Source: Escherichia phage Turkey3. From it: a DNA stretch of 64,000 nt. The translations under genes were made by a program, and so were the position numbers. Numbering within the stretch: position 1 is the first letter of the stretch; each line of letters opens with the position of its first letter. A model generated the notes under the pieces. The model did not search any database. It saw only the letters and a list, made by a program, of their open reading frames with translations, and was not told the DNA's origin. The stretch is from sequence record PQ471515.1; one strand, 5' to 3'. Shown here piece by piece: positions 55,987-57,287 of this stretch.

Positions 55987-56739
55987 GTGATATCAGATAA
56001 ATTTATACAAAATGCTGGGAACAAAAGATTACTTATAATTTCAGGGGCAGGTCTTTCAGTTGAGAGCGGGATGGAACCATTCCGCTTTGATGATGGGTTG
56101 TGGGACAATTTCAAAATTAATGATGTTTGTAACATTGCACGACTTAGTTCTAAGTATCATGTAGTTCATTCATTTTATAATACATTGCGTGTAAAATTAG
56201 GTGAATGTCATCCTAATGAAATGCATTACTTTATTAAATCATTAGAAGATTTGTATGGTGATTGTTTTTTACACATGACTTCTAATATGGATGATCTATA
56301 TACTAGAATTGGTGGAACCGAACTCAAACTACACGGCAATTTATGTGAAGTAATTGAGAACTTTTCTATTAATACTGATGATTACAATGTCATTAATTGT
56401 GGTTATGAACCATATATCCCTAAAGCTGATGTTTTTGCAAAACCAAATGTAGTGATGATTGGTGAGTATCATCGCTACGTTGATGGGGTACGTCTCCCCA
56501 TTTATGAAGAACGAAATGAAGTGTTGAAAAGTCTCACAGAAAATGATACAGTTGTAGTTATTGGAAGTAGTGATACAGTACTGGTATGGTCCAGACTAGC
56601 TGGTGCACTTCCATGCTATAGTGTAAATGTTAACATCCGAAAAAATGATAATGATTTTCTTTTTAATGAGAAGGTCATCAAACCTGCGACGAAAGCAATT
56701 CCACAGGTTGAAACTATAATTAAGGAACGAATGCGATGA
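55987..56739 (+). CDS. Sir2-family NAD-dependent deacylase / ADP-ribosyltransferase
   Basis: ISGAGLSVESGMEPFR (sirtuin GAGIS-ESGIP-FR motif) and LHGNLCEV; GTG start after AGGAG. Confidence 0.7.
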   Translation: MISDKFIQNAGNKRLLIISGAGLSVESGMEPFRFDDGLWDNFKINDVCNIARLSSKYHVVHSFYNTLRVKLGECHPNEMHYFIKSLEDLYGDCFLHMTSNMDDLYTRIGGTELKLHGNLCEVIENFSINTDDYNVINCGYEPYIPKADVFAKPNVVMIGEYHRYVDGVRLPIYEERNEVLKSLTENDTVVVIGSSDTVLVWSRLAGALPCYSVNVNIRKNDNDFLFNEKVIKPATKAIPQVETIIKERMR

Positions 56740-57287
56740 GTAAAGCGGAAGTACCACTGGGGCAACTGGGGAAACGTGCAAATTTTGTATTCTGTTTCTT
56801 TTATGCAAAAGAATGTACCCCATACTCTGGTTATGAACTAAATGATATTCCAGTGGTTAACTTAGTACTCCTACAAGTGCGTTGGGATGGATTGTTGGGT
56901 GCATGTGGTGGAACAGTTGAAAGTACTGATAAGTCATTAGAAGATGCGTTACAGCGTGAAGTTCAAGAAGAAATGAACTATATCATTGACAAAAGTCGCC
57001 TGTCTCCATTAAAATCACTTGAATTGTTTCCAGAGGGTCACTCACATAGCTATAGTTATGAAATGACTTATGCTGAACTTAAAAAACTTCGTGATAATTA
57101 TGCATATGGCAAACATGCTAGTGCAGAGGTGGCTGGCGTAAATTTATGTCACATCTCTCGTTATTCGAAGGGACAAAATCGAGAAGCAGGATATAATAAT
57201 CTTATGACACAGAACTTCATCGGAACTGCGAAACAAGAATTAGAGTATCTTGTACAAAAAGAAAACTTACTAATCAGCTATCTATAG
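56736..57287 (+). CDS. Nudix hydrolase
   Basis: GGTVESTDKSLEDALQREVQEEMN fits Nudix box GX5EX7REUXEEXGU. Confidence 0.6.
   Translation: MSKAEVPLGQLGKRANFVFCFFYAKECTPYSGYELNDIPVVNLVLLQVRWDGLLGACGGTVESTDKSLEDALQREVQEEMNYIIDKSRLSPLKSLELFPEGHSHSYSYEMTYAELKKLRDNYAYGKHASAEVAGVNLCHISRYSKGQNREAGYNNLMTQNFIGTAKQELEYLVQKENLLISYL

Follow-up and report, generated by a model that had tools for sequence, protein, structure and literature searches.

Within a 64,000-nt stretch of the genome of Escherichia phage Turkey3 (sequence record PQ471515.1; hereafter, the window), a sirtuin (Sir2) gene and a Nudix hydrolase gene form the head of a five-gene co-directional block, Sir2-Nudix-cREC-membrane protein-PIN/PhoH, where cREC refers to the "cyclic-phosphate processing receiver domain" of Pfam. 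This block is the unit to explain. The original prediction had taken the Sir2-Nudix pair as the unit; the pair is real, but the next gene, encoding the cREC protein (57297-57617), was missed, although it is the most informative neighbour. The block very probably couples NAD+ consumption, driven by the sirtuin, to the breakdown of ADP-ribose derivatives. As its best reading we adopt, with moderate confidence, the NAD+-dependent repair of RNA ends predicted by Iyer et al. That the acceptor in the sirtuin reaction would specifically be an RNA 2′-phosphate, by analogy with Tpt1/KptA, is quite possible, if short of probable.

Both open reading frames of the pair are exactly where they had been predicted, on the plus strand (Table 1), and the sirtuin signature, GAGLSVESGMEPFR, constitutes residues 20-33 of the first protein. 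This protein matches Pfam SIR2 (PF02146; E = 1.3e-19, 71 bits versus a cutoff of 24) as well as PHROG 2162 ("Sir2"; E = 8e-74). The Rossmann motifs for NAD+ (GAGxS...SG, [TS]xN-D and GxS) are present, and the NAD-binding and catalytic positions G20, G22, S27, N100, D102, H116, G117, G159 and E160 are invariant across 26 homologues, with G193 and S195 also conserved. H116-G117, found in 26 of 26 sequences, aligns with the catalytic histidine of E. coli CobB, which is the best solved relative (E = 2e-21, ~28% identity). A profile of the 26 homologues ranked the PDB entries in the order CobB (1e-38), Sir2Af1 (5e-28) and SIRT5 (3e-23), then Sir2Tm and SIRT1-3, while an AlphaFold (AF2) model with a pLDDT (predicted local distance difference test) of 91.7 was superposed on CobB by Foldseek with a template-modelling score (TM) of 0.76-0.84. 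Besides the NAD-binding motifs and the catalytic histidine, the phage protein shares the helical module with CobB, Sir2Af1 and SIRT5, and its invariant Y64 and R68 are similar to the Tyr/Arg pair with which class III enzymes bind anionic acyl groups.

The likeness to CobB does not extend to the zinc site. The four cysteines of CxxC...CxxC are gone: C119 and C138 are the sole cysteines in the region, neither of them conserved. Several members of the sirtuin clade have one Cys in total, and only the outlier P0029 retains CTAC...CPKC; loss of the four-cysteine zinc site was also noted in Vibrio phage homologues by Skliros et al. (PMC5107563). The acetyl-lysine tunnel of CobB is formed by F190, Y220 and P221 (PMC5107563); F190 (in FGE) corresponds to I158 in the query and V219-Y220-P221 to V198-L199-V200. 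Within the clade, the FGE Phe is retained in some members only and the Pro of VYP in none, being replaced by Val or Lys, the confidence in the alignment of this second motif being moderate. Furthermore, TQNID of CobB reads T[S/A/T]N[M/V/I]DD, and an insertion of ~12 residues follows the GE motif. The best score against the NCBIfam equivalogs for CobB/NAD-dependent deacylase was 89 bits and did not reach the cutoff of 318. The 250-aa protein consists of one domain, in a clade that is acidic (pI about 5-6.5). By its sequence, it is a zinc-less derivative of the class III (CobB/SIRT5-like) sirtuins. Since the NAD and catalytic residues are intact, with the zinc cysteines and the tunnel residues altered, it is probably an active, NAD+-cleaving enzyme with a changed acceptor site.

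A phage-encoded Sir2 had been held notable for the reason that Sir2 domains are effectors in bacterial defence systems. The searches with hidden Markov models (HMMs) and structures place it with the class III deacylase type and not with the defence NADases. No PADLOC family matched at E <= 0.1, and the 60 best profile matches in the PDB did not include a defence Sir2; with profile and fold both pointing to the deacylase type throughout, the candidate of a defence-type Sir2 NADase was rejected. ThsA, DSR1/2, Sir2-HerA and SPARSA belong to the same superfamily and consume NAD+, whereas the query is a single-domain protein of a lytic jumbo phage, without a fused sensor domain or a partner gene, and no HerA, TIR, SLOG or pAgo neighbours were found at the locus. 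Of 50,697 phage records, 986 contain a homologue of it, from T5-like, rV5-like, phi92-like, KVP40-like and Rak2-like phages.

The Nudix box reported in the second gene is recognisable, with the catalytic core R74-E75-x-x-E78-E79 intact; it departs from the textbook at E7 (K66) and G22 (N81), much like human NUDT16. The protein matches the Pfam Nudt16-like family (PF22327; E = 1.4e-18, 67.8 bits versus a cutoff of 27), NUDIX (E = 2.4e-7) and PHROG 9999 ("nudix hydrolase"; E = 7e-79), as well as human NUDT16 itself (E = 9e-12, ~30% identity). We mapped its residues onto the published NUDT16-ADP-ribose structure (PMC6459841) via a 46-sequence alignment, in which the numbering of NUDT16 residues 1-28 agrees with that paper. 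The residues for catalysis and metal binding, E76, E79 and E80 in NUDT16, correspond to E75, E78 and E79 (100% conserved), the distal metal ligand E136 to E131 (100%) and the phosphate-binding R50 to R49 (98%); R74, E75, E78, E79 and E131 are each conserved in 93-100% of the 46 sequences. The purine-binding C-terminal helix is also recognisable, FIGTAKQEL in the query being aligned with FIGSAREQL in NUDT16. The two enzymes differ in the purine-stacking H24, which is F19 here (98% conserved), in the base-reading Q170, which is E168 (Glu in 89%), and in the "mouth" residues Phe36 and Phe61, replaced by Ile38 and Thr60. From these residues, the protein is to be classed as a NUDT16-family pyrophosphatase with an intact catalytic site. 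Human NUDT16, a U8 snoRNA-decapping enzyme that also acts on (d)IDP, hydrolyses both free and conjugated ADP-ribose (PMC6459841).

The NUDT16-like family is small (222 cluster representatives out of 1.84 billion at E <= 1e-3). In phage genomes, the gene occurs in 74 records, nearly all of them from Rak2-like jumbo phages of Enterobacterales with genomes of 337-386 kb. Longer members of the family are fused to cREC, Ham1 ITPase or HD domains; the metagenomic fusions include one with a Ham1-family ITPase (P0238) and two with HD_4 domains (P0218, P0269). The Ham1 and HD fusions suggest that the family also serves in nucleotide-pool sanitation, in keeping with the action of NUDT16 on (d)IDP.

The third gene matches Pfam PF20274 with E = 1.9e-23, and the family-invariant residues are all present (D8, D9, R11; D47, H48, D49; E57, K58, T59, G60; H85, S86, N88, P89, G91). 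The cREC family was defined by Iyer et al. in 2021 (PMC7824862). In the predicted model, the protein folds as a four-stranded receiver with an acidic pocket, two invariant histidines and a D-x-D at the phospho-acceptor position: D8-D9 follow strand beta-1, D47-H48-D49 follow beta-3 and H85-S86 follow beta-4. Receiver domains bind Mg2+ after beta-1 and carry their phospho-acceptor after beta-3. A search for a solved structural homologue of cREC found none. The protein has no histidine kinase partner; its neighbours here are Sir2, Nudix and PIN-PhoH. It is a predicted receiver-like phosphoesterase for cyclic-phosphate and ADP-ribose derivatives. The modelled D-x-D resembles motif I of HAD phosphatases, so cREC may act as a phosphomonoesterase via an aspartyl-phosphate, a mechanism that may replace, or add to, the metal-independent cyclic phosphodiesterase activity proposed in the literature. 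As the catalytic residues of the sirtuin (His116), the Nudix protein (its glutamates) and cREC are all present and conserved, the possibility of dead enzymes, by which the original prediction could have failed, was rejected.

The evidence for a joint function comes from the conservation of the block. Escherichia phages fEgEco12, Ecwhy_1 and EC.P1 match the region at 99.4% identity, and 121Q and PBECO4 at ~79%; relatives of this 121Q/fEgEco12 type are jumbo myoviruses of 350-385 kb, and existing records of relatives label the first gene "Sir2-like protein" and the second "NUDIX hydrolase". At 43-59% Sir2 identity, the order in relatives is 2H (Pfam Acb1)-Sir2-Nudt16-like-cREC-~100-aa protein-PIN/PhoH, with the 2H phosphoesterase directly upstream of Sir2. 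It was seen in phage EJP2, Cronobacter phage GAP32 and two metagenomic jumbo-phage contigs (L005 and L006), and confirmed with HMMs built from our own alignments. Each of the related cassettes examined has a ~100-aa counterpart of the membrane-type protein in this place (L005, L006, GAP32_121 and EJP02_133), and the Sir2-Nudix-cREC order holds across 43-100% Sir2 identity in Rak2-like jumbo phages. Moreover, the Nudt16-like and cREC domains are fused in GAP32_120 and P0163, and in Serratia BF, XbC2 and Erwinia phages a single annotated gene covers the two. With the intact sirtuin residues, the NUDT16-family Nudix, the adjoining cREC, the Nudix-cREC fusions and the kept order, the NAD+/ADP-ribose processing unit proposed in the original prediction is plausible. 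Its statement that the two genes are co-translated was too strong. The ATGA overlap at the Sir2/Nudix junction is genuine (...CGA ATG CGA TGA / ATG AGT...), but such an overlap only suggests coupling, and we discount it as evidence because, of the 48 gene junctions annotated in the corresponding part of fEgEco12, 10 show a 4-nt overlap and 19 an overlap of any kind.

In these relatives, genes for an NMNAT-Nudix protein (NatV) and NAMPT (NadV) occur 3-5 kb upstream of the block. Nampt and Nmnat make up NARP2, a pathway that overcomes defences acting by NAD depletion, as Osterman et al. showed (bioRxiv 10.1101/2024.02.11.579819). Neither NAMPT nor NMNAT was detected in the window by tblastn, and no phage of the 121Q/fEgEco12 type was amongst the top 40 NAMPT matches, where the other Rak2-like groups all appear. 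Likewise, tblastn with the EJP2 2H protein found no counterpart in the window or in ~70 kb of fEgEco12, and no phage of the 121Q/fEgEco12 group was amongst 60 sampled of the 225 phage records with an EJP2-type 2H. The only upstream gene that the window and EJP2 have in common encodes an HslV-like peptidase. As 2H and NadV/NatV are absent here and the core is kept, the Sir2-Nudix-cREC-membrane-PIN/PhoH core has outlived its neighbours.

In a rV5-like metagenomic contig (L003, 1621-3960), genes for a NadR-like protein (CTP_transf_like and AAA_28), a PnuC-type nicotinamide mononucleotide transporter and a phosphoribosyl pyrophosphate synthetase lie at most 6 kb from Sir2 and Rnl1. The NadR-like and PnuC-type pair is the recently named NARP3 (PMC13464706). 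With NARP3-type genes near the rV5-like Sir2, two unrelated lineages have NAD-rebuilding genes close to a phage sirtuin, each with a different pathway. As bearing on the present block, the NARP3 paper was set aside, being unrelated to it.

A sirtuin-2H-Nudix-cREC-PIN neighbourhood, with Serratia phage BF as the prototype, was described by Iyer et al. in 2022, who proposed a KptA/Tpt1-like action of the sirtuin on RNA 2′-phosphates, with its partners processing the ADP-ribose cyclic phosphate (Viruses 14:1977; PMC9503650, section 3.7.3). The window presents the same phage-specific sirtuin clade, Nudix, cREC and PIN protein in one co-directional block of the Rak2-like lineage; the BF homologues are 47% (Nudix) and 58% (cREC) identical to the window proteins. 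In terms of their configuration 1, the linked sirtuin, Nudix, cREC and PIN are here (55987-59417, contiguous and all on the plus strand), but a linked 2H is found neither beside the sirtuin nor elsewhere in the 64-kb window. In addition, Nudix and cREC are separate genes in the window and fused in BF and GAP32, NadV/NatV are absent from the window and stand upstream in BF, GAP32, EJP2 and RaK2, and the window PIN domain is fused to PhoH, unlike in the prototype. Thus, the genes are already in the GenBank annotation and the type of neighbourhood is published; the window holds a slightly reduced form of it, without 2H, without NARP2 and with Nudix and cREC unfused.

Links to RNA repair recur elsewhere. 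In rV5-like phages, genes for a phosphoesterase, Pnk and RNA ligase 1 are followed by a weak cREC match, Sir2 and DNA ligase. One of four cREC contexts sampled in unrelated large contigs has an RNA ligase next to cREC, which lends modest support, and in the block itself the 2H phosphoesterase that precedes Sir2 in relatives and the PIN-PhoH gene at the end also speak for RNA repair. The window itself carries an RNA ligase gene (38326-39468, plus strand; 380 aa) that matches RNA_lig_T4_1 (E = 6e-14) and the tRNA-repair-specific T4_Rnl1_C (E = 3e-16); the fEgEco12 counterpart (g182) of this T4 Rnl1-type ligase is annotated as hypothetical only. A T4-type Pnk/phosphatase gene (40291-41223) follows 0.8 kb downstream, and RaK2 carries the same RNA ligase and Pnk pair (PMC3622015). 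Separately, the window has a weak match to peptidyl-tRNA hydrolase PTH2 (45865-46284, plus strand; E = 1e-4, narrowly missing the Pfam cutoff); a Pth2 has been reported for RaK2 (PMC3622015).

In the mechanism that we favour, following Iyer et al., the sirtuin would move ADP-ribose from NAD+ to a phosphate acceptor, most likely the 2′-phosphate of damaged RNA ends, in a Tpt1/KptA-like manner. His116 would then activate the ADP-ribose 2′′-OH, yielding the repaired RNA and ADP-ribose 1′′,2′′-cyclic phosphate. This by-product would be opened and dephosphorylated by cREC and, in the relatives, the 2H enzyme, and the Nudix protein would split the pyrophosphate into AMP and ribose phosphate. In the reactions of both sirtuins and Tpt1, an oxygen nucleophile attacks C1′′ of NAD+, after which the ADP-ribose 2′′-OH attacks the adduct. 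The chemistry of the RNA-repair model would fit because the two reactions share both steps, the second being helped by His116. The proposed functional analogue is the set of Tpt1/KptA, Cpd1 (2H) and Poa1 (Macro), in which the RNA 2′-phosphate attacks NAD+ and the ADP-ribose 1′′,2′′-cyclic phosphate released is opened and dephosphorylated (PMC9503650). The analogy would not be one of descent, Tpt1 having the ADP-ribosyltransferase fold and no homology to the window sirtuin. No Macro domain like that of Poa1 was found in the window (the rest of the ~375-kb genome was not scanned for Macro), and cREC and Nudix would take its place. A bolder version holds that the phage sirtuin clade is not a deacylase but the first case of a sirtuin working on a nucleic-acid phosphate, a Tpt1 analogue healing RNA 2′-phosphate ends, with cREC as a new class of receiver-fold phosphoesterase and the NUDT16-like Nudix dismantling the ADP-ribose cyclic phosphate; we put it forward tentatively and regard it as rather doubtful.

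Several observations speak against RNA-end repair. The sirtuin clade is acidic, unlike typical RNA-binding enzymes, although this is weak evidence, and the T4-type pathway of Pnk and Rnl1 needs no removal of a 2′-phosphate. The adjacent 2H, which would create the 2′-phosphates or open the cyclic product, has been lost in this lineage. Amongst four cREC contexts sampled in unrelated large contigs, an RNA ligase adjoins in one and the other three are without an RNA-repair neighbour. Sir2 and Nudix are paired in a single phage lineage only, so that vertical inheritance could by itself account for the synteny; ATGA overlaps abound in this genome, and the fusions of NUDT16-like domains to ITPase and HD domains point to other possible substrates. 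Lastly, in the literature searched, we found no experimental work on phage sirtuins, on cREC proteins or on the Nudix of the block.

If the sirtuin were a protein deacylase, it would strip proteins of the host or the phage of acetyl or succinyl groups, in the manner of CobB or SIRT5, while the Nudix would hydrolyse O-acyl-ADP-ribose or ADP-ribose, recycling AMP and ribose-5-phosphate and relieving product inhibition. Its closest relatives in sequence and structure are all class III deacylases, with which it shares an intact catalytic His and NAD motifs as well as the Tyr/Arg pair; its acidic pI suits a protein substrate better than RNA, and the NadV/NatV of the relatives, 3-5 kb upstream, would replace the spent NAD+. 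The same function was proposed for the Vibrio phage homologues, the transcript of which is high at 20 min post-infection (PMC5107563). The zinc module is gone, however, and the tunnel residues (FGE-Phe, VYP-Pro) are not conserved. A deacylase also leaves cREC without a role, even though it is fused to the Nudix in relatives, and does not account for the recurrent company of RNA ligase, Pnk, 2H and PIN. The RNA-repair model would give every gene of the block a role, which deacylation does not, and we consider the latter a serious rival, if rather unlikely.

The original prediction leaned towards ADP-ribose-derived defence signals. The Nudix and cREC would then destroy NAD-derived messengers or toxins (glycocyclic ADP-ribose (gcADPR), His-ADP-ribose or ADP-ribose-1′′-phosphate) and might strip ADP-ribose from phage nucleic acids, while the sirtuin modifies a component of host defence. 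In its favour, the block of the relatives adjoins both a Pfam Acb1 match (the anti-CBASS 2H nuclease) and the NARP2 genes, human NUDT16 cleaves conjugated ADP-ribose (PMC6459841), and, in the view of Iyer et al., the Nudix, Macro and NADAR domains of phages serve chiefly to counteract soluble ADP-ribose signals. But a sirtuin that consumes NAD+ has no rationale inside an anti-depletion island, the lineage of the window has lost the Acb1-like gene and NARP2 and kept the block, and the literature searched yielded no phage Nudix that degrades gcADPR. A marginal PADLOC match of the Nudix to PDC-S07 (E = 0.0014) says nothing on anti-defence either way. No evidence for such an aim was found; RNA-end repair is published and fits better, and counter-defence, though a rival to be weighed, is in our judgement improbable. 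Nor do we give much credit to the view that the genes are independent auxiliaries held together by descent, with a Nudix that sanitises the nucleotide pool ((d)IDP/ITP) or is a NUDT16-like decapping or deNADding enzyme, unrelated to the sirtuin. The Nudt16-like gene does belong to one phage lineage, and most of the 986 records with Sir2 are without it, T5-like, Vibrio and phi92-like phages having a Sir2 without a Nudt16 or cREC match nearby; the Ham1 ITPase and HD fusions, as well as the commonplace 4-nt overlaps, would also agree with it. Yet the order is unbroken at 43-100% Sir2 identity while the flanking 2H, NARP2 and protease genes changed, Nudix-cREC fusions exist, and the adjacency of Sir2 and cREC recurs in the unrelated rV5-like lineage. 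This makes a lack of joint function improbable too.

Table 1. Genes and other features at the Sir2-Nudix-cREC locus (window positions).
Feature	Coordinates	Strand	Details
Small hydrophobic open reading frame	55786-55977	+	63 aa, pI 8.9; stop codon overlaps the Sir2 ribosome-binding site
Sir2 gene	55987-56739	+	GTG start, 250 aa; AAGGAG Shine-Dalgarno 5 bases upstream
Nudix gene	56736-57287	+	ATG start, 183 aa; NUDT16-like Nudix hydrolase; ATGA overlap with Sir2
cREC gene	57297-57617	+	106 aa; start 9 nt past the Nudix stop; own GGAG
Conserved 100-aa protein	57614-57916	+	N-terminal hydrophobic helix, five cysteines; PHROG "membrane protein"; ATGA overlap with cREC
PIN_4 and PhoH fusion	57978-59417	+	479 aa; Pfam PhoH 8.5e-45, PIN_4 4.5e-20
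Terminator-like hairpin	59776-59797	+	9 bp stem, T-run; first such site 3′ of the block

The last large gene of the conserved block encodes a predicted RNA nuclease/ATPase. It is uncertain whether the small open reading frame that precedes Sir2 is part of the block: it is hypothetical g217 in the fEgEco12 annotation, and in the relatives its position is occupied by the 2H (Acb1-like) phosphoesterase. The hairpin downstream is a possible end of the transcription unit; it is a weak site, in a terminator scan that gave two sites versus 2.2 expected. A promoter scan gave 31 matches versus 23 expected, and there are no tRNA genes or Rfam RNAs in the window.

Three peptidase-like genes are found at most 5 kb upstream of the block on the plus strand (50572-51267, 54200-54808 and 55089-55754); of these, one is clearly a ClpP (E = 1e-41), another is weakly ClpP-like (PHROG "protease") and the third is HslV-like (PHROG 1040). 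Two genes of the cytidine/dCMP deaminase family are also on the plus strand (53178-53660 and 63062-63430), the former overlapping the preceding "virion structural protein" open reading frame (52697-53224) by 47 nt. Further away, window positions 35-17399 (plus strand) carry tandem families of small paralogous genes (blastp E <= 1e-5), to which no function was assigned: one family of seven (6666-8672 and 13916-14603), one of six (8856-10675 and 15683-17399), one of three, and several pairs. Finally, about 4 kb downstream of the block, fEgEco12 has a gene (g228) for a 323-aa "WGR domain-containing protein". It is absent from the window, where ~240 bp (61460-61700) correspond to a 1165-bp stretch in fEgEco12 (17761-18926 of the compared stretch). 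WGR domains accompany PARP-type ADP-ribosyltransferases, and this strain-variable gene may be part of the same NAD/ADP-ribose theme.

Sirtuin genes have been annotated for years in large phages of the T5, KVP40, rV5-like and Rak2-like groups. The Sir2-Nudix-cREC core is small, three genes in 1.6 kb, and what it offers of interest is its mechanism. If the sirtuin does remove RNA 2′-phosphates, this would be a new class of reaction for a heavily studied enzyme family and a new branch of phage tRNA repair, and thereby a new way past defences based on anticodon nucleases. A deacylase, by contrast, would give the phage a direct route to rewriting the acyl-proteome of its host. The cREC protein, a widespread and structurally simple domain, matters under either reading.

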